UHGV virus genome: UHGV-0168752 | Strand: one strand, 5' to 3' | From: a virus | DNA: 14,491 nucleotides | In this document: positions 1,563 through 14,491 of the stretch, piece after piece | Layout of the letters: the number at the start of each line of letters is the position of its first letter | Position numbering within the stretch: the first letter of the stretch is position 1 | Made by a program: the position numbers and the translations under genes | Notes under the pieces: generated by a model | What the model was told of the DNA's origin: nothing | Database searches by the model: none | The model's input: the letters and a program-made list of their open reading frames with translations, nothing else

Positions 1563-2336
1563 TTAAAAGATAAAATGGCCAGTTAGTGCTTCTACTTCAA
1601 CACCAGACATTGCTGGAGGTGCTGAGTATGGAAAAGTAAGACGCACGGTTGCACCCTTTAAATACGCAATACGGTAGTATGTGGTCAAGAGCGCAATCCC
1701 GTAAGTACAGTCGTTATAGAAGAAACCTTCGGTTGCAAACGTCTTTTCGTTGATTTTCGAATAGACTAAGATACCTTCAACTTTACCGTCTTTACGACAG
1801 CACAGCCCTTCAGCAGCCCCAATAGCTAACAATCCCAGGCAGTATGTATCCAAACTGACATTAACCACCTTAGGAATCGTAAACGTTTCTTCTAACGTTA
1901 GAGATTCAATATCAACTACATCAGGTAAATCGGTGCGAACTTCGGGTTCTTCAGTAAACGTCAGGTCATAGTCGATGGACGTCGGCTGCATACCCAAATA
2001 CGCCATTAACTGGTCACGACGTTTTAGGTCGTTGGCAGGGTATGTGACATCAAACATCTCCACTTTTAACAAACGTTTGAGTTGTGCGAAATTAATTTTC
2101 TTCTTCGCAAACACAACGATTGCCGACATGTAGAAAAACTTACCATCGGCACGACCGGAGAAGATTCCTTGTAGCTGATTCGTGTTCGAAAGAATGATAA
2201 AGGTCGGATCTTCAGACTCGCGAATGACGTCCTTTTCCAATAACCCTTTCCGTACACGGGTTAGTGAAACCATTTTCCCGTCCACGCCAATTGCTAAATG
2301 GTCATTACGATAATCGTGGATATCCACTATGCGCAT
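1563..2336 (-). CDS. Hypothetical protein (257 aa), translationally coupled to Dam
   Basis: ATG overlaps the Dam stop (TAATG at 2334-2338). No motif I recognise. Confidence 0.7.
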   Translation of the reverse strand: MRIVDIHDYRNDHLAIGVDGKMVSLTRVRKGLLEKDVIRESEDPTFIILSNTNQLQGIFSGRADGKFFYMSAIVVFAKKKINFAQLKRLLKVEMFDVTYPANDLKRRDQLMAYLGMQPTSIDYDLTFTEEPEVRTDLPDVVDIESLTLEETFTIPKVVNVSLDTYCLGLLAIGAAEGLCCRKDGKVEGILVYSKINEKTFATEGFFYNDCTYGIALLTTYYRIAYLKGATVRLTFPYSAPPAMSGVEVEALTGHFIF

Positions 2337-3151
2337 TAGAGCACTCCCAGTAATTCAGTCACTGTTTTCCGAGCGGCACCGGACGCACCCATATAGCGAC
2401 CGACCTCAATACTACGCCACTCAAAACCGTAATAAATTTCTCGGGTGAGTAGGGTGTCTGCATTTGACAACACGACACTGTTGCCACGTTCCACCTGCTG
2501 CTGTAGTAACTTGGCTAATTCTCGATGATCCGTTTGTGAGAATTCTTTACGGTGGTATTGCGCATGTTTCGCGGTATCCGATAACGGAATATAAGGAGGA
2601 TCGGCATAAATCACGGCATCCTCAGGTGTCCGCGCCAGTACGGAACGAAAGTCTTCACAAACGATTTCCAAATAATCCACTTCTGCGCAACGTTTAGCCC
2701 AGTCTCGAATTTCTTCTAACGGGTAATAAACACCGTTCGGGTAACGTCCAAACGGAACATTGAACCCACCACTACTGTTATAGCGACACATCCCGTTATA
2801 GCCGTGACGCATTAAGTATAAAAACATCGCTGCCCGTTCAACGTCTGACATCGATTTACCGCTATTAAACAGCTCACGACGTTCCATATACCTTACTGTA
2901 GTATTACCGTCTAAGAACAATGGCTGAGACGCAGCAATCAGTTCTTCAGGTTGTTCACGTGCAACACAGAGTAAGCGTATCAGATCAGGGTTAGAATCTG
3001 ATAGAATATACCGGCTATAATTCGTATTTAGGAAGACAGAGCCTGCACCCACAAACGGTTCTACAAACGTTGTACGTTTAGGTAAGACCTTTTGTAATTC
3101 TCCTAAAACACGGGTTTTCCCACCCATCCATTTAATAATCGGTTTCCGCAT
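2336..3151 (-). CDS. dam: DNA adenine (N6) methyltransferase, Dam family
   Basis: Translation has KWMGGK near the N-terminus, FVEPFVGAGSVF (SAM-binding FxGxG), NGMCRYNSSGGFNVPFGRY and the catalytic DPPY, colinear with E. coli Dam and T4 Dam as I recall them. Confidence 0.9.
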   Translation of the reverse strand: MRKPIIKWMGGKTRVLGELQKVLPKRTTFVEPFVGAGSVFLNTNYSRYILSDSNPDLIRLLCVAREQPEELIAASQPLFLDGNTTVRYMERRELFNSGKSMSDVERAAMFLYLMRHGYNGMCRYNSSGGFNVPFGRYPNGVYYPLEEIRDWAKRCAEVDYLEIVCEDFRSVLARTPEDAVIYADPPYIPLSDTAKHAQYHRKEFSQTDHRELAKLLQQQVERGNSVVLSNADTLLTREIYYGFEWRSIEVGRYMGASGAARKTVTELLGVL

Positions 3152-4130
3152 TATATCCGCCTTGTAACGATGACACTTCGTCGCCTAACACTAATTCGAC
3201 CCGGTTTTTCCGACGCTCCCAGCTGACAACATCATCGTCGCGTACTAAAACAAATTCGTATTCGTAGGGACGGAATTTAAACAAATCTACGGCTAGGTGT
3301 CTAAATGCAGGGTTGTTATTGTAACACCCTATTTCTAATGGCGCTGCCGTGGTCGATGCAATCTGTAAAGCACGATACAACAAGGCACGGCCAATCCCAC
3401 GACCACGATGCGTTTCACTTACCGCAATGGCTTTTAATTCACACTCGTTGAGATTACGCAATTTGACTTGAACCACACCCACAACGTCATTACCGTCCAT
3501 CCAAACGTAGGTGTGGTGATTGATGTGACGTACTAACTCCACCAACGTTTCGACTTGTGGCATGATTTGCCGAGAACGGCCTACAGGGTCAGCATTGATG
3601 TTTTCAACAACACTGGTACCCAACAACAGCATAAGTTGTTCACGTTGTGCAGCGTTTAAATCTTTATAAAGATCGCCAGAAATATTCTTCACGTTCGTCG
3701 GTAATGTAACATCCAATAACGTACGTGTCCCTAAGCGGTATGAGGTCTGTGTATGCCTAAATCCGAAGTCATTAAGCTCAGCAATTTCTTCCACGCCTCT
3801 GGCAATTCGATTGAGGTATGTAAAACCAGTATAGTCCAGTACCAGTAAAAGGTTCAGTTTGTTCAAACACCCTGGTACAATTTCGTGCATATACAAGCAG
3901 TGTAACGTTGGGTCACCGTAAATATGTTTTGTGATGATAAACCCTTGAATCGTTTTTCCTTTTTGTAAAGAGAACGTATTCAGCTCAGTATTACACAACG
4001 CCTCGCGAATCACAGCACCGTTAGGACCCGTTAAACATGCCTGAAGTTGGGGATTACGAATATCTCTTCGTGCTAAGCGTCCTACGGTTAAATCCAGAGC
4101 GGTACGTTCTATAGTCTTCCTAAAAGCCAT
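3132..4130 (-). CDS. GNAT-domain acyltransferase-like protein with N-terminal extension (332 aa; possibly tandem GNAT)
   Basis: C-terminal region contains VSETHRGRGIGRALLYRA, matching the GNAT motif A signature (R-x-x-G-x-G/A). AAGGAG 8 nt upstream of the ATG at 4130. The 3-prime end overlaps the Dam start by 20 nt. Confidence 0.7.
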   Translation of the reverse strand: MAFRKTIERTALDLTVGRLARRDIRNPQLQACLTGPNGAVIREALCNTELNTFSLQKGKTIQGFIITKHIYGDPTLHCLYMHEIVPGCLNKLNLLLVLDYTGFTYLNRIARGVEEIAELNDFGFRHTQTSYRLGTRTLLDVTLPTNVKNISGDLYKDLNAAQREQLMLLLGTSVVENINADPVGRSRQIMPQVETLVELVRHINHHTYVWMDGNDVVGVVQVKLRNLNECELKAIAVSETHRGRGIGRALLYRALQIASTTAAPLEIGCYNNNPAFRHLAVDLFKFRPYEYEFVLVRDDDVVSWERRKNRVELVLGDEVSSLQGGYNAETDY

Positions 4131-4180
4131 GTTAATTGCTCCTTAAAAGGTCGTCTCAAAACAATACGCTAAAGCTGTAA

Positions 4181-4216
4181 AAACAAAAAAAAAGAAAGGG
4201 GAACCGAAGTTCCCCC
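4181..4216 (-). terminator. Rho-independent terminator
   Basis: Perfect 7-bp stem GGGGAAC/GTTCCCC (4198-4204 and 4209-4215) with a 4-nt loop (TTCG on the minus strand), followed on the minus strand by TTTCTTTTTTTTTGTTTTT. Confidence 0.8.
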
Positions 4217-4223
4217 GTAATAG

Positions 4224-4811
4224 TTAACCGAACAGTTTACGATGTAAATGGGGGAACCAATTACATATTTCCTTTTTGTAGTTCCGTCCGGTTTTATCCC
4301 AATCGTCTTCTTTGAACAGACTTTCGTCAAAATTCAGATACGATTCGAATTGTTTGTTGAGCATGGTATGTTGCTCTGGAAAACGTACCAGAATTACCGC
4401 GTCCTTTTTATCGAGTGTTTGGACATTCAGAACTTCTGGCGTAAACTTGAAGTAAGCGTTCGCGTCCACCCGTAACCAGTTGGCAAGGCAGATAACATCT
4501 TGTTCGAGCTGGTTCAATATTTCGAACACGTCAGAATCGGGCGCTTCCATGGTTAAACGTAGTAGTAACTTTAACAAATCGTTACCGCTCAGCAAGTCGT
4601 AATGATGTCGTCCTGAGGTGAGACTCACGAGTTCGCCTTCCCATAGCCAGGCCATAAAGTGACAGTTGAAGGGACGGTAGTGATAAATCCGACACTCGCT
4701 AAAAGGACTCAATTTAAGGGTGAGAATAGGGTCTGCTAAAGCGTGTAGCGTGACTGGTGGGAAGATCGCTTTAGGAAACGTAGTGTCTTCTGGTAAGGTT
4801 TCTGTTGCCAT
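4224..4811 (-). CDS. Hypothetical protein (195 aa), co-transcribed with the XRE regulator
   Basis: ATG at 4811 with AGGAG 9 nt upstream. No recognisable motif. Confidence 0.7.
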   Translation of the reverse strand: MATETLPEDTTFPKAIFPPVTLHALADPILTLKLSPFSECRIYHYRPFNCHFMAWLWEGELVSLTSGRHHYDLLSGNDLLKLLLRLTMEAPDSDVFEILNQLEQDVICLANWLRVDANAYFKFTPEVLNVQTLDKKDAVILVRFPEQHTMLNKQFESYLNFDESLFKEDDWDKTGRNYKKEICNWFPHLHRKLFG

Positions 4812-4881
4812 GATTTTTACTCCTGAAATGGTTTGTCGAAAGCACCGAAAAGTTTGGTAACGGGCTGATCTCCAATTAATC

Positions 4882-5232
4882 TTAGAAGCCCAGTGTTTGT
4901 TTAAATACGTTGCTGAGGTAGCTTGGTTTTGTCGCCTTGACGTAATCTAACGCGGACTCTGCGGTTACCTTAACCACACAACGTCCGTTAGTGGACTCAA
5001 ACGTCACGCTGTATTTCAAACGTAACATGTCGGCAACTTTCATTATCATTCCCAGACTTAAACGTTCTGGATGTTCGTTCGCAATTGAAGAAATCACCGA
5101 TGGGGAAACTTTCGCAAGCTGGGCCAATTCACGTTGAGTGATTTTACCACGTTGTAAATGGCGAATGATATAACCCAGACGAATAACTAACTGCTGTTTT
5201 GCAATAGTGACGGTGTTATGTTTGTAAGCCAT
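4882..5232 (-). CDS. XRE-family helix-turn-helix transcriptional regulator (116 aa)
   Basis: N-terminal ITQRELAQLAKVSPSVISSIAN fits the Cro/CI-type HTH pattern. AGGAG 8 nt upstream of the ATG at 5232. Confidence 0.7.
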   Translation of the reverse strand: MAYKHNTVTIAKQQLVIRLGYIIRHLQRGKITQRELAQLAKVSPSVISSIANEHPERLSLGMIMKVADMLRLKYSVTFESTNGRCVVKVTAESALDYVKATKPSYLSNVFKQTLGF

Positions 5233-5304
5233 GGTTATACTCCTTTAGGTTAACAAGTCGGTGTAAAGAGTTAATCGCAACTCTCACTTAAGTAATATCT
5301 ATCT

Positions 5305-5344
5305 GTGAAAAAATAAAATACAGGTACCACCTAACGGTGGTACC
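5305..5344 (-). terminator. Rho-independent terminator
   Basis: Perfect 9-bp stem GGTACCACC/GGTGGTACC (5323-5331 and 5336-5344), 4-nt loop, followed on the minus strand by TGTATTTTATTTTTTCAC. Confidence 0.8.
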
Positions 5345-5351
5345 TAAGCAG

Positions 5352-5975
5352 TTAGTTTGCTAAAATGTGTGTAACAATCTCTGCCGCTTTTAAACGGTAG
5401 TCATCGTTCTGCGTTACACGTTGTAAAGTGTGCAGGCAGCCTCCTTCCGTCAAGATATGGTGTGCGAAACGGTAGTAGTCACGCAACGCGTCCCAACTGG
5501 TTTCGTCTTTCAGGTACTTAGCCGTAAGTACCTCATCGTCCCAATTCTTACCTTGTTCTTCTACCCGTTTCTTAAAACGCTCCGTAGCCGTTGTATAGTC
5601 AACATCCAACCACACGTAGAGATCCGGCGCGTGGTAGTGACGAGTTACCTTGCGTCGGAACACCGCATCCTTCCCATCGGTACCTTGGTAAACGATCGTC
5701 GACGGGCAAAAACGGTCAAAGATAACCACGTCGTAGTCGTCAACCACGTTATCCATTGTGTAAATAAAATCCAGACACATCGCGTCGGCTATTCTGTCTT
5801 TTGAAGCAGCCTGCACCACCAGACTGCGTGCGCGAATACCCGCGTCCGTTTCAGACGTTGGATGATTTCGAACGCAGACTTTTAATCCTAGCGATTCCAA
5901 CATCGCTTTTACCATTTTACACAATGTAGATTTCCCAGAAAAGTCAGGGCCATCAATAGACACGGTCTTAAGCAT
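5352..5975 (-). CDS. tmk: Thymidylate kinase-like dNMP kinase (207 aa)
   Basis: P-loop IDGPDFSGKST, DRF motif in VIFDRFCPSTIVYQG (compare the E. coli Tmk DRH...QAYQG region) and a LID-like region DLYVWLDVDY...ERFKKR. Confidence 0.8.
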   Translation of the reverse strand: MLKTVSIDGPDFSGKSTLCKMVKAMLESLGLKVCVRNHPTSETDAGIRARSLVVQAASKDRIADAMCLDFIYTMDNVVDDYDVVIFDRFCPSTIVYQGTDGKDAVFRRKVTRHYHAPDLYVWLDVDYTTATERFKKRVEEQGKNWDDEVLTAKYLKDETSWDALRDYYRFAHHILTEGGCLHTLQRVTQNDDYRLKAAEIVTHILAN

Positions 5976-5998
5976 TATTGTTTTACCTTTTTACGCAC

Positions 5999-6018
5999 GT
6001 TAAGTGAGGATTCTCACA
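5999..6018 (-). promoter_or_regulatory. Operator-like palindromic element, copy 2 (GTTAAGTGAGGATTCTCACA)
   Basis: 19 of 20 identical to copy 1. Lies between the terminator at 6045-6082 and the tmk start at 5975; the upstream flank TATCAT resembles TTTCAT at copy 1 (a possible -10 element). Confidence 0.45.
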
Positions 6019-6044
6019 ATGATAGTATCGGTTGTAATAATTTA

Positions 6045-6082
6045 CGATAAAAAAGAAACCCGCCCCTACCATTCGGTAGGGG
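6045..6082 (-). terminator. Rho-independent terminator
   Basis: Perfect 8-bp stem CCCCTACC/GGTAGGGG (6063-6070 and 6075-6082), 4-nt loop, followed on the minus strand by CGGGTTTCTTTTTTATCG. Confidence 0.8.
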
Positions 6083-6089
6083 TAAGGTT

Positions 6090-6695
6090 TTACTGGTGGT
6101 CGACAATCGGCTCGCTCCACGTGGTTACCGGTTCCGGCGTACGCAGATTTTGCGTTTGTGCTGACGTTACACACAACAACACTAAACCTTGTCGTGCCAG
6201 ATAATGTTGCATTCTGGCTGCTTCCACGGGAGTGTCAACAATAACGAGCTCAGCGCGCCGTAGCAACGCTAAAGCAGCTTGACCTTCTTGTGGTGTGGTT
6301 AAAGCATCAGAGTCGTCCAGAATGCGTTTAAGGCGGTTATACGCCATCCCGGTTACATTACTCCGACCTGCGCGAAGATCAACAACCATATCGTTATATT
6401 CTCCTACCACCTGTTGCGTCGAGTTTGGATAAAACCGAAACGCAGCACGACGACGTTTACGACGCACCTCAGAAATCGCGCGTTGTAAAACCAACAGTAC
6501 GTATTTCGGTGCAGCTTCACTGTTTGGACGGCGCATCTTTGCTAAACGCGCCGCCAAATCCAAAACTTTCGTTAATGGGTAGCGGTGTTTAAACCCTTCG
6601 CGTTCGATGGTGACACCCCGCTTAGGAAGCTTACCTGTTTTGTTGATATACGACACCGTAATCAGTAGTAATGAATCGAGAATCATCTCTGACAT
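6090..6695 (-). CDS. Hypothetical basic protein (201 aa)
   Basis: ATG at 6695 with GAGGG upstream. Arg-rich segment EVRRKRRRAAFRF. No confident family assignment. Confidence 0.65.
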   Translation of the reverse strand: MSEMILDSLLLITVSYINKTGKLPKRGVTIEREGFKHRYPLTKVLDLAARLAKMRRPNSEAAPKYVLLVLQRAISEVRRKRRRAAFRFYPNSTQQVVGEYNDMVVDLRAGRSNVTGMAYNRLKRILDDSDALTTPQEGQAALALLRRAELVIVDTPVEAARMQHYLARQGLVLLCVTSAQTQNLRTPEPVTTWSEPIVDHQ

Positions 6696-6709
6696 TACAA
6701 CACCCTCTC

Positions 6710-7081
6710 TTAGAACCCCTCGAGAACAGCTTTCACAAATTCGTAAACCGTGCGGCGGTGTTCTTCAAGCGGATAACCAAACTTCGCATAATCGTCGTTC
6801 CAGACAATCGGATAAAGATCGCCTCCACAACTCAGATACCCTTTACGTAGCAGATAATAATCCAGCCCAACTCTAAAATTTAAAGACAGGCTGCCTTGTT
6901 TACTGCATACGTGCAACTGAATCGATTTCACACCGTCGTGTGTTGGCGTTTCAATCGTTTCTGCATACAATACATCCGAGCAACCTTCTAGTGTGCTAAC
7001 GACGTCTCTAAGGTTGTTATTGGCGTCGATGGTTGCGGCACGAAGCGCGTCGGTGTATTGCTGAAGTTCTCGATGGAACAT
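6710..7081 (-). CDS. Hypothetical protein (123 aa)
   Basis: ATG at 7081 with AGGAGA about 9 nt upstream; the start lies 94 nt inside the preceding CDS in another frame. Confidence 0.55.
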   Translation of the reverse strand: MFHRELQQYTDALRAATIDANNNLRDVVSTLEGCSDVLYAETIETPTHDGVKSIQLHVCSKQGSLSLNFRVGLDYYLLRKGYLSCGGDLYPIVWNDDYAKFGYPLEEHRRTVYEFVKAVLEGF

Positions 7082-7620
7082 CCTGCTAATCTCCTGTCTC
7101 TACCGTAAGGCAGAGGAAATGCTTTGTGTTCGAACTCTACCACAACATAAGCCGGGTAGAACAAAAGGTATTTATAAAACGTTGCCAACGTTACGTCTTT
7201 CGGGGTCGCCAGAAAATAATTAAGGTCGGGTGCGTCAGGAAATGCAAAATACAACCCTGTATAAATCTGACCGTTATACAACCCATTAAACGGTGTCACT
7301 ACACACTTCGGATGGGTGGGTTCGACGTGTAACCATCGACTACCGACGTGATAGACGCCCCGTAACGTGCCATTTCGGGTCTTCCCTAAATAACGACAAC
7401 GGATATTCTTTTCCCATGCGCTACGCTGGGTTGGAGAACCGCGCTGGACAAAACGACTTAACGCTTCGGGTGTAAAGTAATCAAAAATGGCTGTGGGTAA
7501 ATACCAACACGTTTTATCGATTCGTACCACTCTCCAGCCAGGACGAAAACCTACAGCGTAACGCTCTACACCAAAAGTATATCTAGACCCGTCGTGAAAC
7601 GGTACGAACCTTGCGCTCAT
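6988..7620 (-). CDS. Hypothetical protein (210 aa)
   Basis: ATG at 7620 with AAAGGAAAT upstream, 1 nt after the GNAT stop. Aromatic-rich; no recognisable motif. Confidence 0.65.
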   Translation of the reverse strand: MSARFVPFHDGSRYTFGVERYAVGFRPGWRVVRIDKTCWYLPTAIFDYFTPEALSRFVQRGSPTQRSAWEKNIRCRYLGKTRNGTLRGVYHVGSRWLHVEPTHPKCVVTPFNGLYNGQIYTGLYFAFPDAPDLNYFLATPKDVTLATFYKYLLFYPAYVVVEFEHKAFPLPYGRDRRLAGCSIENFSNTPTRFVPQPSTPITTLETSLAH

Positions 7621-7621
7621 T

Positions 7622-8092
7622 TTAGATTTCCTTTATCATTTCCCTGCACTCTGTACGAAAACCCATTTTCTCGTACACACTGATGGCTTTAATGTTATTG
7701 TCCAACACATCTAAAGACATCCAGCCACAACCCTTAGATTTTCCGTAGTCACGGACTTTATCCATAAGGGCACGACCGACCCCTTGTGAGCGCGCTTCCT
7801 CTAATACATAGTAATTCCCAATATAGACGAAGTTGTCTTTAGCACAGGAACCCAACGAGAACGTCATAAACCCTAAGAGAGTATCGTTATCGTCAACGGC
7901 GCACGCACACAGATAATCTTGTGGCCAAATCTCTTCCAGTCGTTCTATCGGGTTAAAGGTATCACGACCGGTGAGTTGGCTGATACGCACTTTCTCTTCA
8001 GCGAATAAGTGGTTATGTAAACGTAATACGTCAGCACCGTAACGTTTACCGTATTTACTGTCGGGTTTAAGGATAATAAAGACGCGCATCAT
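7622..8092 (-). CDS. GNAT-family N-acetyltransferase (156 aa)
   Basis: Motif A RSQGVGRALMDKV followed by AISVYEKMGF, typical GNAT core. Start overlaps the upstream stop (ATGA). Confidence 0.8.
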   Translation of the reverse strand: MMRVFIILKPDSKYGKRYGADVLRLHNHLFAEEKVRISQLTGRDTFNPIERLEEIWPQDYLCACAVDDNDTLLGFMTFSLGSCAKDNFVYIGNYYVLEEARSQGVGRALMDKVRDYGKSKGCGWMSLDVLDNNIKAISVYEKMGFRTECREMIKEI

Positions 8093-9222
8093 TTAACCTC
8101 GACTAATGATAAACGGCACCACTCCAGCAACCCTTCTGCAACGCGCACTAATGCGGTTGTGAAAGCGTCCTCTAAACGTAGTGCATTTTTATAACGCACC
8201 GTAGCATCACGTAACTCACGTCCTTCAAGCGATTTGAGTTCTTTGCGCATACGTTGAATTTCGTCATAAATTCCCGTATACCCAACACTGCGACGTTTTG
8301 TGCCACGCTGACGTAAGGCACGAATAATGCGATCTACGGCTTCTAACGCCTTACCAATCTCGTGTAAGTTCAACGATTTAATGGTATCTCCGTAATCACC
8401 GTCGCGCGCAATCGCCCATTCGATTTTACCATTCTGATGCTCAACCACAACCACGTTACCCGGCCACGGATACGCTTTTACAGATTTAAAAGGATCGATA
8501 ATGCCAAGTAAGCCTGCGCTTCGCTTAATTGCCCAGCTCGTAGAACGACCTACTCTTTCTAATCCGCTTTCGGTAACTTTCTTACTCTTACCGATAATCG
8601 TACGCGTTTTAACCGTGTACTCGTTAACCATCCCATCGATAGCGTTCAAGTTCTTACTGAAATCAATACACGCTTCAACATTCGGTTTGTCTTCTAAACA
8701 AACTTTTGTTGTCCAGCTTCCTGTTTCACAGTCACGTGGTTTTAACGTGTCTTTGTCACCAATTAAACTTAAGCGTGAATTTAACTTCTGTAGCTTGCGT
8801 TCTAACGACGCGGCTTTGGACGTTGCTTCTTTCAGTTCATTAATGACTTCTTTACCGGCAGCTTCCGCGAAATCGACAAAACGTAACGCCAGTTGCTTAG
8901 AATGCTTACCTGCAAACTTACCAGACGCTTTGGCTCCTGCCACCGCCGCCTTTCCAGCAACCCGACCAACACCCTTAACCGCTCTACCTGCTGTTCGTGC
9001 TACCGCTTTACCTACCCCTGCATAGGGTTCCGTGTCCGCAACGAATTGTGCACGATCCATCATCGCTGCGGATTCCTGTGCGACCTGAATATCGTCTAAT
9101 GCCCAGCGTTTTCGGATAGCAACAACTGCTGGATAGTTATCTTTAACGTTAAGCGATTCTAAAGCGACTAATCGATCGTAGTCATCGCAAAGGACTTCTA
9201 AATCGGAATCTAATGTTGACAT
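8089..9222 (-). CDS. Hypothetical protein (377 aa) with a Lys/Ala/Gly-rich low-complexity segment
   Basis: ATG at 9222 with AAAGGA upstream. Internal segment AGVGKAVARTAGRAVKGVGRVAGKAAVAGAKASGKFAGK; the remainder looks helical and charged. Confidence 0.7.
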   Translation of the reverse strand: MSTLDSDLEVLCDDYDRLVALESLNVKDNYPAVVAIRKRWALDDIQVAQESAAMMDRAQFVADTEPYAGVGKAVARTAGRAVKGVGRVAGKAAVAGAKASGKFAGKHSKQLALRFVDFAEAAGKEVINELKEATSKAASLERKLQKLNSRLSLIGDKDTLKPRDCETGSWTTKVCLEDKPNVEACIDFSKNLNAIDGMVNEYTVKTRTIIGKSKKVTESGLERVGRSTSWAIKRSAGLLGIIDPFKSVKAYPWPGNVVVVEHQNGKIEWAIARDGDYGDTIKSLNLHEIGKALEAVDRIIRALRQRGTKRRSVGYTGIYDEIQRMRKELKSLEGRELRDATVRYKNALRLEDAFTTALVRVAEGLLEWCRLSLVEVK

Positions 9223-9244
9223 CCTTTACCCCATTTAAGCTAAA

Positions 9245-9260
9245 GCGGGGAGAAGCCCGC
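9245..9260 (-). terminator. Weak hairpin, possible attenuator or leaky terminator
   Basis: 5-bp GC stem (9245-9249 and 9256-9260) with a poor T tract on the minus strand; lies between the SLOG-like gene and the 377-aa gene. Confidence 0.3.
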
Positions 9261-9271
9261 CCTGACTAACT

Positions 9272-9820
9272 TCATAATAAGCGCAGGTCTTCTAGCCACT
9301 TACTTGCATCGGTGGTGTGATAATAACAAGGAATATTCAACGTCTGCGCATAACGAACACCCATTGCCGTCCCACCTTTCGGATTTCCCTTTTTATCGTG
9401 CGGTGCGTAGTAATAGACAGCATCTACGTGATCGTCTAAAGTGTCGCCGGATACAATATTTAAGTTTCGTCCATGCAGCGCCCAAGCAATATCCGATAGT
9501 TTATCAGGATTAGGATGAAGTGAAGCCACAATCCCACGATAACGAATGTCTTGAGGAATAACACGAAACTCTACGTTTGGGTGTAACTTACGTAGCCACA
9601 ACTTACGTTCGTCAGGTAAATAGCAAATATGCGAAGCTGGTTCAGTACGCGCCAACATAAATTGTAATTGGTCTGGTCCTTTATAACAACCACCTGAACG
9701 TGTTTCGATAGTGTGTTGTTTATTACGAAGAATTTTAAACCCACGTTGCAACACGTCCAGCATTTCTTGCATTGTGTCTTCGGGAGTTTCTCGAGAACCG
9801 ATAATAGCAATTTTATACAT
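9272..9820 (-). CDS. SLOG/DprA(Smf)-like Rossmann-fold protein (182 aa)
   Basis: N-terminal IAIIGSRE, then SGGCYKGPD, and C-terminal GGTAMGVRYAQTLNIPCYY, resembling the GSR...SG.A.G.D...GGT pattern of DprA/LOG-type SLOG domains. GGAGGTGA upstream of the ATG. Confidence 0.5.
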   Translation of the reverse strand: MYKIAIIGSRETPEDTMQEMLDVLQRGFKILRNKQHTIETRSGGCYKGPDQLQFMLARTEPASHICYLPDERKLWLRKLHPNVEFRVIPQDIRYRGIVASLHPNPDKLSDIAWALHGRNLNIVSGDTLDDHVDAVYYYAPHDKKGNPKGGTAMGVRYAQTLNIPCYYHTTDASKWLEDLRLL

Positions 9821-9848
9821 TTGTCACCTCCATACTGAGGTCGTAAAG

Positions 9849-9894
9849 TGAAAAAAAAAATAAAATAGGAGAGAACCTCAAAAGGTTCTCTCCT
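9849..9894 (-). terminator. Rho-independent terminator
   Basis: 10-11-bp stem GGAGAGAACC/GGTTCTCTCC (9868-9877 and 9884-9893), 6-nt loop, followed on the minus strand by a T tract (plus-strand A run 9849-9866). Confidence 0.85.
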
Positions 9895-9907
9895 AACGTT
9901 ATCGTTA

Positions 9908-10543
9908 TCACTCTAATCCACTTAATACCACAGTTTCGAGTAACGCTTTACCCATCCATACATCCAACTCACCGTCTAAGTCCGCCAACGGGCGTTTATT
10001 CAGCTCATTGTTATAGTCGAGTCCATCGAGCGTTCTGTTTGTAATAATTTGGCCTAAATGTAGTGGCAGGATAAATCGATTTCTCGCACTATAAATAAAC
10101 GAATCACATTCGTAAACCACTGCGTACCGCTCGATATCTTCATCGTACTCAATATGGCATTGAGAACCGGTGTCCCACGCACGCGACAGAACCATACCAC
10201 GGTCCTGACACATCTTCTCCACCGCTACCTTCGCGGATGCACTCCACGTATCGTAGTTCTTTGGTTGACCGTTTTCGAAATCGAACCATTCCAGATACTT
10301 GGCAGGAATCTCAAGGAAGTCGTTTAACTGAAGCTTTGTGTAAGTTATCATTACCGCATCGTTAATGTCGTTACGGTTGGTTAACTTTACTTTATACCGG
10401 CCTTCCGGGGTGGGCGCACCTATTAAAGAAACATCCACTTTCTCAGCCGAAAGCTTTTTACGTACACTGTCACTGTTACAATAACTGACAAGATTGAGTA
10501 AGTTCTGTCTGTGGCCAACTTCGAAATCAATTACAAAAGACAT
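9908..10543 (-). CDS. Hypothetical protein (211 aa)
   Basis: ATG at 10543 with GGAG 7 nt upstream. No recognisable motif. Confidence 0.7.
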   Translation of the reverse strand: MSFVIDFEVGHRQNLLNLVSYCNSDSVRKKLSAEKVDVSLIGAPTPEGRYKVKLTNRNDINDAVMITYTKLQLNDFLEIPAKYLEWFDFENGQPKNYDTWSASAKVAVEKMCQDRGMVLSRAWDTGSQCHIEYDEDIERYAVVYECDSFIYSARNRFILPLHLGQIITNRTLDGLDYNNELNKRPLADLDGELDVWMGKALLETVVLSGLE

Positions 10544-10565
10544 ACAAACTCCGTGGGGTTAATCA

Positions 10566-10958
10566 CTAATACCCGTATAAGGGATACCGTGCAGTGATTT
10601 CATCACCCGCATAAAAGGTTAAACGTTGAATATTGATGTTTTTATTTGTGTAAGGTACAGTTTCTAACGTCACCTTCACGGTTGCAGAACAGCTTCCAGG
10701 ATCAACAAATTGGTACGTGCGCCGTTTGATGTTTACCAAATAGAAACCGCCTGCGGGACACAATTCGGTTTTACCGTAATTTACCACAGCAAATTCATCA
10801 TTCTGAACTGCGACGATAGGCTGGTCACCGGGTTTAAAAACCACAGGTTTATCGCCAGGTACGGTCGGTTCAAAACGACTAATGTCGTGCGGCTTAAATT
10901 CTGCCATTGCAGAAAATGAAAGTGACGTTAGAAATAGAGTAATAACAAAACGTTTCAT
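10566..10958 (-). CDS. Secreted/periplasmic small protein with N-terminal signal peptide (about 130 aa)
   Basis: True start is the ATG at 10958 overlapping the upstream TGA (TGATG); the track's 10961 start is a TTG. MKRFVITLFLTSLSFSAMA-EF looks like a Sec signal peptide with an AMA cleavage site. Confidence 0.7.
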   Translation of the reverse strand: MKRFVITLFLTSLSFSAMAEFKPHDISRFEPTVPGDKPVVFKPGDQPIVAVQNDEFAVVNYGKTELCPAGGFYLVNIKRRTYQFVDPGSCSATVKVTLETVPYTNKNINIQRLTFYAGDEITARYPLYGY

Positions 10959-11434
10959 CAATCTACCTCATCAAGATAATCACGCAGCCAAGGCATCGTT
11001 TCTAAACGAGGAATCATGTTCCGCGTATTCGGCGAAAACCATAACGCGTCGTGATATTTCTTTTTGAAACGTTCCCAGTTATACGAGAAAGGTTTGGGTG
11101 TAAAACCGCGTTCTTTTAACACCTCTTCCCAAACTAAGTCTTTAATGAAATCATCCACTAATAGTAGTACCAACACTTTCCACTTACTGCGACGAAAGTG
11201 TCGGGTAAAACATTTGCGGAGTTCTGAAAAGTCTTCTCGTTGACTGGAACGTACTGCTGGAATTGCTTTCTCTTTATACTGCGAACAAGGATTATGCTGT
11301 AATATCGTTACAGGAACACCCCGAACGCGACCTGTGCGTAGATCAAGCTCGTGAACGGGGATAACCTCAACACAACGTAATACTTTTGCTTTATTGCCTT
11401 CCAAGTACCGCGTCTCATACTCGACACGAATCAT
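10958..11434 (-). CDS. Hypothetical protein (158 aa)
   Basis: ATG at 11434. Basic, Trp-rich; no recognisable motif. Confidence 0.65.
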   Translation of the reverse strand: MIRVEYETRYLEGNKAKVLRCVEVIPVHELDLRTGRVRGVPVTILQHNPCSQYKEKAIPAVRSSQREDFSELRKCFTRHFRRSKWKVLVLLLVDDFIKDLVWEEVLKERGFTPKPFSYNWERFKKKYHDALWFSPNTRNMIPRLETMPWLRDYLDEVD

Positions 11435-11454
11435 TTTGGGCTCTCAACTGTTTT

Positions 11455-11934
11455 TTAATAAATCTTATCCGCAACAGAGAGAAAGATGGGGGTGTTTTCA
11501 ATAAAGTCCACCAAATATCCTTCTTCCGGCGGGGCGTATGACGAATCAACGTTACCGTTCGTCATACGAAAATACCGACGAGAGTCACTGGCAATAAACC
11601 AACGGTCTATTTGGTAGCCCTTTTTGGAAAAGAAACACAAGCCGTCAATGTTTGAAGGATGGACACGACACATCACTATTTGGCGGTCAGAATTAAGTTG
11701 AACGTACTTCAGTAAGAAAGAACCTACGCCGCTACGACGAGAACCTTCAGCAACTACTAAATAAATAAGATTCCCTGGTTCCCAGATTGCAATTCCGTGA
11801 GTAATATCATCTTCAACGGCTAACGTGATCCTAACCGGTGTTTCCCGGATTGAATTTAAGTCTTTAATGTATTCACGTAATTCAGGAAATTTAGCGGAGA
11901 TTTTATCTTCGGTAATATCTAACTGTTGCATCAT
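11455..11934 (-). CDS. GNAT-like acetyltransferase (159 aa), tentative
   Basis: LVVAEGSRRSGVGSFLLKYV matches the GNAT motif A pattern R-x-x-G-x-G. Start overlaps the upstream stop (TAATGATG). Confidence 0.5.
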   Translation of the reverse strand: MMQQLDITEDKISAKFPELREYIKDLNSIRETPVRITLAVEDDITHGIAIWEPGNLIYLVVAEGSRRSGVGSFLLKYVQLNSDRQIVMCRVHPSNIDGLCFFSKKGYQIDRWFIASDSRRYFRMTNGNVDSSYAPPEEGYLVDFIENTPIFLSVADKIY

Positions 11935-12624: not shown

Positions 12625-12664
12625 GTAAAAATAAAAAGAAGAAACCTCTACCCGAAGGTAGAGG
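12625..12664 (-). terminator. Rho-independent terminator
   Basis: Perfect 8-bp stem CCTCTACC/GGTAGAGG (12645-12652 and 12657-12664), loop TTCG on the minus strand, followed by TTTCTTCTTTTTATTTTTAC. Confidence 0.8.
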
Positions 12665-12670
12665 TTAATG

Positions 12671-13249
12671 TTATTTCGTTGTTGTGCTTTCTGTCTTCGA
12701 CTTAAGCTGGCCTGATTTCTCAAGCTTTTTCTCAACAACTTTCGTAGCGATTTCAAGGGACTTATACGCCAGCGTCTTAATCGGCCACGTGGCGAATACC
12801 ACCAACGCAAAGAACGGGACTAAACATACCAGTAAAACATCTAAACTGTCTTCTGGGAAATGTTGGTGGGTATCATAACCCAGGAACCCCGTTACGGCTA
12901 CAGTTGCCAGGGTCAGCAGAAAGATAATGAATTTCTGCGCGCCAGATAACTTCGGCCACAACGTTAGCATGGTTTCTTTGCTGATCTCATCCCCTAAAGA
13001 TTCCACAGCATCCGTCGCTTGCTGATGGAACTGCTCTGACAGTTTACCTAAATTATCAATCAGCGTTGGACGTAGGTCAGAGAGAATTTTCGTACCCGAA
13101 CGGGTAACATCAACATTGACTTCATCCCCGTACGCCGCTTTCAACAATTTCGTTAACTGCTCAGACTGTTCCTTACTTAACTTTCTGTTTCCAGCTTGAA
13201 TCAACAAGTCAAGTATTTCAGTAGGTAGCGTCTGTGTGTTTGGTTCCAT
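12671..13249 (-). CDS. Membrane protein with two predicted transmembrane helices (192 aa)
   Basis: Hydrophobic stretches FIIFLLTLATVAVTGFLGY and VLLVCLVPFFALVVFATWPI. Start overlaps the RuvC-like stop (TAATG). Confidence 0.7.
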   Translation of the reverse strand: MEPNTQTLPTEILDLLIQAGNRKLSKEQSEQLTKLLKAAYGDEVNVDVTRSGTKILSDLRPTLIDNLGKLSEQFHQQATDAVESLGDEISKETMLTLWPKLSGAQKFIIFLLTLATVAVTGFLGYDTHQHFPEDSLDVLLVCLVPFFALVVFATWPIKTLAYKSLEIATKVVEKKLEKSGQLKSKTESTTTK

Positions 13250-13893
13250 TAACGTTTCCTCCGACGCCTTCTCCGCCTGGAGGTCTTCGGCGACTTTTGT
13301 TTAGGCGGTAGCAGGCTGTTTAAATTTAACAGATTTACCCTGACGAAAATGTTTCCCACCGCCACGGCATCGATGCTATGCTCGTCTAACGTTGTAATAT
13401 CAAACAAAGCGTGTTCACGATACAGTTTGGTCACGGCCCGAAACATATCGGTTTTATCCGTTCCCTTTGCTTCCACACCAACGAATGATTTTACAATGAT
13501 AGGATTGAAACCGTGTAAGATTTTCTCCGGGTAAATGTCCCACAGGGCACGTCGCAACATCAGCTGTAATTCAACACCTGATTCGTACGCGGAGAGTTTT
13601 GCTCTCCGCATAAACGGGGTTTCTGTTGCAACGAAGGTTGGGCAAGCAATCCGAAGAAATTCACGGTAACAAGCTTCGAGCTTAACGAGTCGATCGTCAC
13701 GTTTACCGACACACTCTGCGAACGCATTTGGATGCGTTGGGTCTAATACATGCATGGTATCAGCCCAAACTACTTCGGCTTGATCGCTGCCGTATTCCCA
13801 ATCCAATACCGCCATACCAAGATGGCTCGTACCGGGGTCTATTGCCGCGATTCTCACCATCTTATCTGGAAGTCTCGGCTCGGGTATCAACAT
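13249..13893 (-). CDS. RuvC-like Holliday junction resolvase with Arg-rich C-terminal tail (214 aa)
   Basis: IAAIDPGTSHLGMAV (compare RuvC ILGIDPGSRVTGYGV), FVATETPFMRR (compare FAIEQVFMAK) and DEHSIDAVAVG (compare DAADALAIA). C-terminus SRRRRRRRKR. Start overlaps the upstream stop (TAATG). Confidence 0.8.
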   Translation of the reverse strand: MLIPEPRLPDKMVRIAAIDPGTSHLGMAVLDWEYGSDQAEVVWADTMHVLDPTHPNAFAECVGKRDDRLVKLEACYREFLRIACPTFVATETPFMRRAKLSAYESGVELQLMLRRALWDIYPEKILHGFNPIIVKSFVGVEAKGTDKTDMFRAVTKLYREHALFDITTLDEHSIDAVAVGNIFVRVNLLNLNSLLPPKQKSPKTSRRRRRRRKR

Positions 13894-14448
13894 TAATTCG
13901 CTGTCCCCAGGAAGAACGGCGCAGGCTGACCGATACGAATGGTCAGTGACAGTTTATCATTCGTCTGCGCCAGGTTAGTAAACATCGAGATGTAATACAG
14001 CGCCTGGACACCAATCGCTTCGGTGTAACTGAACTTAGACCCAGTTGCGGAATCACCCGACGTGACTTGGTCTAACCCGGAGCAGAGTGCCAGTTCGGAG
14101 ATAATCGAACTACGCGGACTACCGCGCATGATACTCGTCACGTTCATGTATTCCTGAACATCAAAATCCGTCCACGGAATCACCAGGTCAGCACCGGATT
14201 CAACATAACGACCATCAGGAATCGCAACGGTACCGTCATCATCATAATCGTAATCCGGCAATACTTTCGGTACCGGGTTCAATTCTGTATCGGTGTACAC
14301 GAAGTCTTCGACGGTCTCAACACCGTTCTCACGTTTGATATCGTAGTCTGACGTTTTAACCGCGCGCATATCGATGCGTTTTAAGTAATACGCCCAGTAT
14401 TCACGCTTGTTAAACGTTTCCAAAGTACGGAAAGCGTAGTTCTTACGC
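13893..14448 (-). CDS. Hypothetical protein, 5-prime truncated (C-terminal about 185 aa only)
   Basis: Open frame runs into the adapter at 14449; the apparent N-terminus MCIRDRR is translated adapter, so the real start lies beyond the contig end. No recognisable motif in the remainder. Confidence 0.6.
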
Positions 14449-14491
14449 CTGTCTCTTATACACATCTGACGCTGCCGACGACTCCTTACGT
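14449..14491. other. Illumina Nextera adapter (sequencing artefact)
   Basis: CTGTCTCTTATACACATCT (Tn5 mosaic end) followed by GACGCTGCCGACGA (reverse complement of TCGTCGGCAGCGTC), then 8 nt CTCCTTAC and GT. From memory the 8-mer is the reverse complement of a standard i5 index and GT begins the P5 complement. Confidence 0.95.

Follow-up and report, generated by a model that had tools for sequence, protein, structure and literature searches.

SPN3US-like jumbo phages are known to encode three GNAT-type acetyltransferases, and the SPN3US counterparts gp88, gp95, and gp104 (YP_009153382, YP_009153389, and YP_009153398) already carry that annotation. For relatives of one of them a substrate has been demonstrated: when candidate phage spermidine acetyltransferases were expressed in E. 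coli BL21 delta-speG, the gp95 orthologs of the Erwinia phages phiEaH2 (YP_007237670) and Caitlin (YP_009292176) restored N-acetylspermidine (Li et al., PNAS 2023, PMC9992855). For another a structure is available in PDB 7dqg ('Crystal structure of Salmonella phage acetyltransferase', released 2021-12-29), the chain of which reads, over the matched stretch, identical to the SPN3US gp88 translation. Here the UHGV virus genome UHGV-0168752, a stretch of 14,491 nucleotides referred to as the window, was analyzed with regard to three genes on its minus strand, GNAT1 (3132-4130), GNAT2 (7622-8092), and GNAT3 (11455-11934), which are the orthologs of gp104, gp95, and gp88, respectively. The trio as such is already known; what is new is a diverged member of the phage group that carries it.

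The best overall explanation of the data, to which we assign a probability of about 0.7, is that the window contains three distinct, inherited GNATs: an SSAT-like GNAT2 that would act on spermidine, a tandem GNAT1, and a minimal GNAT3. The three would have been passed on vertically, each in a transcription unit of its own that is bounded by hairpins, and they most likely do not work as one system but have a different acceptor each.

GNAT Status and Kinship of the Three Proteins

An earlier inspection of the DNA (the sequence-only reading) had singled out the three open reading frames (ORFs) by the motif A signature R-x-x-G-x-G. A regular-expression search of the 24 predicted proteins of the window (4,566 amino acids) confirmed three copies, one each in GNAT1 (R242GRGIG; 332 amino acids), GNAT2 (R101SQGVG; 156 amino acids), and GNAT3 (R66RSGVG; 159 amino acids), compared with about 1.0 expected from amino acid composition, and the cluster is thus real and beyond chance motif occurrence. 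Profile searches agreed. Pfam Acetyltransf_1, with a cut-off of 20.7 bits, matched GNAT1 at 47.2 bits (E 3.2e-12, restricted to residues 202-279) and GNAT2 at 68.7 bits (E 6.6e-19, nearly the full protein), and GNAT2 also matched PHROG 3810 at 9e-43. GNAT3 alone remained under the Pfam cut-off (Acetyltransf_7, 21.5 bits vs. 27) and had been named only tentatively, but its family leaves little doubt: it matched PHROG 7861 'acetyltransferase' at 1.5e-69, Acetyltransf_7 was recognized in 12 of 12 aligned members at E<=0.01 (best 9.9e-8) and Acetyltransf_1 in 8 of the 12, and 7dqg was retrieved with an E-value of 1.1e-60 by the window protein and of 2e-81 by the family profile, which also reached the unrelated GNAT structures 3ld2, YjaB, NATA1, Naa50, and GCN5. 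All three proteins possess the motif A loop (Q/R-x-x-G-x-G/A after beta4), which is kept in their orthologs with a relaxed middle Gly in the GNAT1 family, and all three show the GNAT alpha/beta fold. The three genes, the third included, are therefore assigned to the GNAT-fold acyl-CoA N-acyltransferases, with predicted activity.

No NCBIfam equivalog cut-off was reached by any of the three (RimI, AAC, PaiA, and others scored far below), so that they are not ordinary housekeeping enzymes. A third protein outside the GNATs, accompanied by two housekeeping-type acetyltransferases, had been named beforehand as the case that would overturn the grouping, and it does not describe this locus. PADLOC defence models gave no match at E<=0.01 for the three GNATs, for a 257-amino-acid paralog described below, or for the DprA-like protein of the same block, and Mom-type families were absent among the Pfam, PHROG, and NCBIfam matches of GNAT1, GNAT2, and GNAT3. 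Profile-profile comparison with hhalign related the GNAT2 and GNAT3 families with a probability (Prob) of 94%, though over only 85 columns at 27% identity, and gave Prob 77% for GNAT1 against GNAT2 and 0.9% for GNAT1 against GNAT3. Since this similarity is at superfamily level only, an origin of the trio by local duplication or paralogous expansion was ruled out, and the three proteins are placed by these comparisons in separate GNAT lineages that are not recent duplicates.

Phage Affiliation and Conserved Gene Order

A near-identity DNA search with the full-length window found no close reference genome among phages; apart from matches due to adapter sequence, it returned only a 1.1-kb stretch with 74% identity to SPN3US-like jumbo phages. 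Because this is the only phage DNA match, the window is interpreted as a new, diverged species-level lineage of the SPN3US-like jumbo phages. At the protein level the affiliation is much clearer. Homologs were present in 48 (GNAT1), 57 (GNAT2), and 62 (GNAT3) phage records, nearly all of them jumbo phages of about 220-250 kb that infect Salmonella, Escherichia, Proteus, Cronobacter, or Erwinia. All substantial ORFs of the window lie on the minus strand, and the block is colinear, in reverse complement, with the region 83-100 kb of SPN3US and also with Caitlin and Wellington, in which the GNAT genes occupy the same relative positions, are positional orthologs, and already bear the acetyltransferase annotation. 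The order shared with these three phages is virion structural protein, RuvC-like resolvase, GNAT3, DprA-like protein, internal head protein, GNAT2, thymidylate kinase, helix-turn-helix (HTH) protein, GNAT1, and Dam. Identity between window and SPN3US amounts to 30% for GNAT1, 49% for GNAT2, and 59% for GNAT3, and the trio spans 8.8 kb in the window vs. 10.6 kb in SPN3US. phiEaH2 has GNAT2 and GNAT3 but lacks GNAT1. The sequence-only reading had called the density of GNAT genes unusually high; the clustering holds, but it is not peculiar to the window and represents synteny inherited in approximately 50 SPN3US-like jumbo phages.

The nearest relatives of the window, with 89-99% amino acid identity, are unannotated contigs of 100-225 kb from metagenome and Salmonella enterica assemblies, and the window itself is a piece of an SPN3US-like (Salmonella/Erwinia-type giant) jumbo phage of the kind carried in enterobacterial or metagenomic assemblies. 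A near-identical block was found in Salmonella enterica assemblies labelled as bacterial, namely GCA_007525025.1 (Braenderup, 100-kb contig) and a 220-kb contig of S. Wangata (P0028), where a phage was evidently sequenced together with its Salmonella host, either in a carrier state or as contamination. In papers on the genetics and proteomics of SPN3US, gp88, gp95, and gp104 go unmentioned in the main text, and a literature search for acetyltransferases in the core genome of the Chimalliviridae yielded nothing useful.

GNAT2, a Predicted Spermidine N-Acetyltransferase

GNAT2 is an SSAT-like GNAT. Orthology to the two assayed enzymes is supported by 52% (phiEaH2) and 46% (Caitlin) identity over 99% of the length and by the position directly after the internal head protein gene; the SPN3US ortholog is syntenic as well. 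With YP_007237670 and YP_009292176 the window protein also shares motif A, Tyr140, and Asp131. Motif A (R101-S-Q-G-V-G106, 7775-7792, minus strand) has R101, G104, and G106 invariant in 11 orthologs, and the alignment of these 11 sequences showed motif A and Tyr140 to be invariant. The best solved sequence relatives are the human diamine/thialysine N-acetyltransferases SSAT1 and SSAT2 (2b3u and 2bei), with SSAT2 in first place (1.3e-12 with the family profile), and further solved relatives comprise BH1408, nourseothricin and aminoglycoside acetyltransferases, polyamine and thialysine acetyltransferases, and NATA1. The match to SSAT2 is long and in register and runs from beta4 through motif A and beta5 to alpha4, with 'VLDWN..LYKALG' in the human enzyme corresponding to 'VLDNN..VYEKMG' in GNAT2. 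It spans about 72 residues of GNAT2 only, and the N-terminal third has no detectable similarity; GNAT2 moreover lacks a MATEE-type tail, and host and regulatory context also differ.

Within the matched part, GNAT2 has both the acidic residue in beta5 ('VL(D/E)xN') and the Tyr in alpha4 found in SSAT enzymes. Position 131 (codon at 7700-7702), the counterpart of the Asp in SSAT2 'VLDWN', is an Asp in 9 of 11 orthologs, including the window protein and both active enzymes, with Gly occurring only in the SPN3US lineage. Its equivalent in human SSAT1, Glu152, is presumably needed for activity, and we take the residues of SSAT1 equivalent to both positions, Glu152 and Tyr140, to have a functional role. 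Given the two active orthologs, we consider it probable that GNAT2 is an active spermidine N-acetyltransferase. Acetyl-CoA would be bound by the R101-x-x-G-x-G loop, Tyr140, invariant in the 'VYEKMGF' helix, would serve as general acid, and a primary amine of spermidine would receive the acetyl group, so that free host polyamine would fall during infection. A protein of phage Goslar that is 30%-related to GNAT2 yielded N-acetylspermidine as well (PMC9992855). Of the targets listed by the sequence-only reading (host proteins, small molecules, or nucleic acid), a small molecule is accordingly the best guess for GNAT2. In Seoulvirus, a further GNAT2-like gene is located elsewhere in the genome (P0033; in EC001 at two places).

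Several observations weigh against this assignment. In the same assay, SPN3US YP_009153389, which is as closely related to GNAT2 as the phiEaH2 and Caitlin enzymes, gave no N-acetylspermidine (PMC9992855), so that spermidine acetyltransferase activity is not universal in the orthologous group; the Asp131/Gly difference offers a one-residue hypothesis for the inactivity of the SPN3US enzyme. The NCBIfam PaiA model scored 26.4 bits against GNAT2 (cut-off 250), and the SpeG model was absent from the best 25 of 38 NCBIfam matches, which places GNAT2 outside the SpeG and PaiA equivalogs, although it is predicted to work like them.

It is also conceivable, if rather less than probable, that GNAT2 acetylates something else, such as the lysine/alanine-rich internal head protein or another amine metabolite, and that spermidine acetylation is a side activity of the Erwinia-phage orthologs. 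Besides the inactive SPN3US ortholog, this possibility is in keeping with the promiscuity of SSAT-like GNATs (the solved proteins most similar to GNAT2 include enzymes for thialysine, ornithine, and diamines) and with the genomic neighborhood. The phiKZ-type internal head protein (8089-9222, minus strand) was identified by Pfam phiKZ_IP (30.9 bits vs. a cut-off of 27) and PHROG 2497 'internal head protein' (4.8e-77), and its stop codon overlaps the GNAT2 start in an ATGA (8089-8092), which suggests translational coupling of the two genes. The adjacency is kept in five genomes examined, SPN3US, phiEaH2, Caitlin, and Wellington among them, and leaves room for a head-related role of GNAT2. gp94, the SPN3US ortholog of the internal head protein, has been detected in virions (PMC10052503). 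On the other side, two of three tested orthologs and the distant Goslar homolog are active on spermidine, and GNAT2 shares Asp131 with the active orthologs instead of the Gly of the inactive one; as a weak additional point, a search of the 2023 mass-spectrometry paper on SPN3US, which covered its main text but not its tables, turned up neither acetylation nor gp95. Spermidine is therefore retained as the predicted substrate of GNAT2.

GNAT3, a Minimal GNAT with a Solved Ortholog

The 159-amino-acid GNAT3 is a single-domain protein and 58% identical over its full length to the protein in 7dqg. Its family is the most conserved of the three, with 58-67% identity of GNAT3 to the orthologs from SPN3US, phiEaH2, and Asesino and a mean column identity of 73% over the whole length. 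The protein is a minimal GNAT extended at its C-terminus by about 35 conserved residues (PPEE...PIFLS). Its motif A, R66-R-S-G-V-G71 (11722-11739, minus strand), corresponds to the acetyl-CoA pyrophosphate-binding loop, and R66 and G69 are invariant in 12 orthologs. The AlphaFold2 model of GNAT3 is only moderately confident (predicted local distance difference test score [pLDDT] 65.6), but Foldseek with this model retrieved 7dqg first, followed by GNAT-type acyltransferases only. For 7dqg, the searchable literature yielded no publication and no ligand or substrate information. In the GCA_007525025.1 contig, which also has an extra phiKZ_IP paralog, the GNAT3 locus is apparently split in two ORFs.

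GNAT1, a Clade-Restricted Tandem GNAT

GNAT1 is predicted to be a tandem-GNAT protein. Its AlphaFold model, based on a 9-sequence alignment (pLDDT 81.7; predicted template modeling score [pTM] 0.76), has two consecutive GNAT-topology domains in one chain, formed by residues 14-133 and 205-296 and connected by a helical linker, and ends in a disordered tail (307-332). The N-terminal domain (3732-4091, minus strand) is a degenerate GNAT-like domain that lacks Q/R-x-x-G-x-G/A and is barely recognizable by sequence, and comparison of the N-terminal with the C-terminal domain gave no signal of an internal duplication. The C-terminal GNAT domain (3243-3518, minus strand) carries motif A, R242-G-R-G-I-G247, at 3390-3407 and matched the GNAT2 family in hhalign (Prob 91.6%, E 8.4e-7). 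Structural neighbors of the model are the tandem GNATs MshD, WecD, and VipF; those from viruses are NMT and FemAB. Sequence identity to the solved tandem GNATs MshD (1ozp), MAB_4324 (7q3a), VipF (6wqb), and Orf14 (2wpw) is 8-17%, with 8% for 1ozp, and the MshD equivalog TIGR03448 scored 21.5 bits against a cut-off of 163.1 and covered one domain. The hosts of these phages are not known to make mycothiol, and the substrate of GNAT1 must therefore differ from that of MshD.

An exhaustive search of 1.84 billion representative sequences retrieved a GNAT1 family of 12 proteins at E<=1e-3, about 8 of them full-length, which upheld the small family size indicated by a word-indexed protein search with four matches only. 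The family thus appears to be essentially confined to the SPN3US-like phage group, and GNAT1 is best described as a clade-restricted protein with a predicted two-domain, MshD-like architecture. Its invariant residues concentrate in the N-terminal domain and the linker (GDPTLxC, LLDHTG, GF, ISGD, and DPxGR). The C-terminal domain with the R242-G247 loop would bind acetyl-CoA, and by analogy with MshD the acceptor cleft would be made up of the N-terminal domain together with the conserved linker (ISGD, DPxGR). His278, one helical turn before the usual position of the catalytic Tyr, is nearly conserved.

For both GNAT1 and GNAT3, some features speak against an ordinary enzymatic role. In the GNAT1 family, Arg frequently replaces the middle Gly of motif A, and the usual catalytic Tyr position varies (A, F, Y, or L); GNAT3 has an invariant Phe where many GNATs carry the catalytic Tyr. 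One or both proteins could be poor catalysts or perform a different chemistry. A more radical version, which we regard as unlikely, is that GNAT1 and/or GNAT3 are catalytically dead GNAT-fold modules for binding or scaffolding, as the GNAT-like domain of chimallin reportedly is, and that GNAT2 is the only enzyme. In addition to the missing Tyr, the loss of motif A in a neighboring GNAT1 paralog (1563-2336) would agree with such a role, and the conservation of GNAT3 over its whole length would fit a protein-protein interface. However, many active GNATs lack the Tyr, and the acetyl-CoA loop is under selection in both families, with R66 and G69 invariant in GNAT3, G247 invariant in GNAT1, and R248 nearly so. 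Predicted acyltransferase activity thus remains the preferred reading for all three proteins.

Putative Transcription Units and Timing of Expression

A consensus scan of the gene strand detected six terminator-like, GC-rich tetraloop hairpins with T-runs between genes, and three of these immediately precede the GNAT-bearing units. The first (4177-4216, followed by TTTTTAC) is located directly 5' of GNAT1 at the start of the unit that continues with Dam and the 257-amino-acid ORF, the second (9848-9895, followed by TTTTTCAC) precedes the unit with the DprA-like, internal head protein, and GNAT2 genes, and the third (12625-12666, followed by TTTTTAC) precedes a 224-amino-acid ORF and GNAT3. The remaining intergenic hairpins with T-run are at 5305-5346, 737-775, and 6063-6082; all six are on the minus strand. 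They delimit five complete putative units on this strand and two that are cut by the window ends. With ORFs of no assigned name given by length in amino acids, the complete units are 224/GNAT3/158/131/211, DprA-like/internal head protein/GNAT2/210/123/201, thymidylate kinase alone, HTH/195, and GNAT1/Dam/257/75/168. The units, and with them the proposed separation of the three GNATs, were derived from consensus scans alone and are putative.

The element TTTTT(C)AC has five gene-strand copies, all of them intergenic and within about 25 nt after a hairpin (five of six hairpin sites), although only 882 of the 14,491 nt (6%) are intergenic, and the same hairpin-TTTTT(C)AC arrangement is found before SPN3US gp101 and gp104. 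Hairpin and element possibly form a terminator-promoter module with an AT-rich phage promoter, perhaps an early one; phage-specific AT-rich early-promoter motifs of about 10 nt have been reported for jumbo phages that encode RNA polymerases (PMC7598289). A sigma-70 promoter scan of the window showed no enrichment (23 found vs. 23.5 expected), as expected because the phage has its own RNA polymerases. The sequence-only reading had assigned the genes to a phage early region. This placement is unproven: the element is the one hint at early expression, and the same block also encodes the internal head protein and a virion structural protein in addition to a RuvC-like resolvase, thymidylate kinase, and Dam.

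These observations bear on the idea that the GNAT trio acts as a single coordinated module for early host takeover, transcribed from promoters of the virion RNA polymerase and acetylating host RNA polymerase or ribosomal proteins in the manner of LUZ19 Rac or RimI. The AT-rich element in front of each of the three units and the early-promoter motif reported for other jumbo phages are in line with it; according to a prediction by Iyer et al., the RNA polymerase or the ribosomes of the host are modified by jumbo-phage GNATs (PMC7824862), and RimI headed the NCBIfam matches of GNAT1 and of GNAT2 and ranked second of two with GNAT3, in all cases far under the cut-off. Rac of the phiKMV-like phage LUZ19, a small GNAT that acetylates the alpha subunit of the host RNA polymerase, has been proposed as a model for the jumbo-phage GNATs (PMC7824862, PMC13282480) but is a functional analogy only; no specific similarity of Rac to the window GNATs turned up, and no test aimed at Rac was made. 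However, a late function is suggested by the internal head protein gene within the units and by the genes for virion structural proteins beside them, the three proteins are not close relatives of each other, the set is separable since phiEaH2 has GNAT2 and GNAT3 without GNAT1, and orthologs of one member have a demonstrated small-molecule substrate. A common takeover module is thus very unlikely, and three proteins with different acceptors are preferred.

The Dam Gene and a GNAT1 Paralog without Motif A

Directly after GNAT1 follows a Dam-type (D12 class) N6-adenine DNA methyltransferase gene (2336-3151, minus strand; Pfam MethyltransfD12, 5.2e-57). The last 20 nt of GNAT1 overlap the dam start (3132-3151), and the adjacency is kept in SPN3US, Caitlin, and Wellington, which suggests translational coupling of GNAT1 and dam. 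The next gene is the 257-amino-acid ORF (1563-2336, minus strand; PHROG 9941, a family of unknown function), which had no Pfam match and none in PDB by phmmer or hmmsearch. A six-member profile of its family aligned to the GNAT1 family in hhalign with Prob 84.5% (E 7e-6, score 47.2) over 229 co-linear columns, compared with scores of 11.8-18.6 for a reversed and 20 column-shuffled controls; as a single sequence the ORF reached Prob 1.8%. In addition, Foldseek of the GNAT1 model against BFVD retrieved uncharacterized proteins of 256-278 amino acids from phiEaH2, Kwan, and relatives (E 1e-9 to 1e-14), which were identified by length alone as the genes after Dam in the same phages. Motif A is lost in the ORF, with 'FFYNDCTYGIALL' aligned to 'SETHRGRGIGRALL'. 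The product is therefore probably a divergent, tandem GNAT-like paralog of GNAT1 and a candidate pseudo-enzyme that would be co-transcribed with GNAT1 and Dam. In related phages, one to three such paralogs follow Dam.

None of ten neighbor-gene families compared by hhalign with the three GNAT profiles and the 257-amino-acid family profile showed similarity, so that the family of the 257-amino-acid ORF was the only positive one, and Pfam searches at E<=1 or E<=0.1 of 17 further ORFs, with four others left out, revealed no hidden GNAT. The 195-amino-acid ORF 5' of GNAT1 gave a weak hhalign score of only 25 and was not accepted as a GNAT. In total, four genes of the window thus probably encode five GNAT-like domains, and one of these genes is likely to specify a pseudo-enzyme.

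GNAT1, Dam, and the paralog or paralogs may be conceived as a clade-specific module in which an active tandem GNAT with pseudo-enzyme relatives acylates a new acceptor; candidates would be DNA bases, nucleotides, and macromolecules of the phage or its host. We give this little credence; if true, it would be an undescribed modification system of SPN3US-like jumbo phages and, with polyamine depletion by GNAT2, part of a multi-pronged acetyl-CoA-based takeover. The narrower proposal of a nucleic-acid modification module, with GNAT1 acylating a DNA base or nucleotide in a Mom-like manner beside adenine methylation, has the GNAT1-dam overlap and conserved adjacency and the occurrence of DNA-base-acylating GNAT-superfamily enzymes (Mom) in jumbo phages (PMC7824862) in its favor, but is highly improbable in view of the lack of any Mom-type match in Pfam, NCBIfam, or PHROG and of any detected DNA-binding domain, the small-molecule and protein tandem GNATs among the structural neighbors (MshD, WecD, and VipF; viral NMT and FemAB), and the retention of Dam and paralogs in phiEaH2 after loss of GNAT1.

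Neighboring Genes and Contig End

The last approximately 48 nt of the window (14444-14491) are an Illumina Nextera transposase adapter (CTGTCTCTTATACACATCTGACGCTGCCGACGA plus index-like bases), which explains the matches to the ends of unrelated phage records and identifies the 'MCIRDR...' start of the ORF at 13893-14465 as an artefact. The true gene behind this ORF is that of the virion structural protein (295 amino acids in relatives) and runs past the contig end. Next to it lies the RuvC-like Holliday junction resolvase gene (13249-13893, minus strand; PHROG 159, 1.8e-37), whose product has an odd poly-arginine tail (…KTSRRRRRRRKR), followed by a 192-amino-acid ORF (12671-13249, minus strand; PHROG 8722) with a hydrophobic stretch compatible with membrane insertion. 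A 131-amino-acid ORF (10566-10961, minus strand; PHROG 5248) begins with a typical signal peptide (MMKRFVITLFLTSLSFSAMA), and its product may be exported to the periplasm or secreted. The DprA-like protein (9272-9820, minus strand) matched PHROG 768 at 3.1e-44 without a Pfam match and is conserved as the first gene of the internal head protein/GNAT2 unit. The ORF 5' of GNAT1 (4224-4811, minus strand) has 195 amino acids here vs. 215-224 in all relatives, among them a 223-amino-acid counterpart in a 93%-related metagenomic contig (L005 9234-9905), which suggests an N-terminal truncation or a different start site in the window.

Implications for SPN3US-Like Jumbo Phages

The result is the correct annotation of a diverged SPN3US-like jumbo phage and not a discovery. 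It nevertheless places the solved 7dqg protein in the most conserved of the three GNAT families, and describes the SPN3US gp104-type proteins as tandem GNATs accompanied by degenerate paralogs, an arrangement that hints at a small gene family built around an acceptor of its own. Polyamine acetylation may be general among enterobacterial jumbo phages. Should host proteins or nucleic acids turn out to be the substrates, the block would offer a compact model of acetyl-CoA-dependent host manipulation by giant phages.

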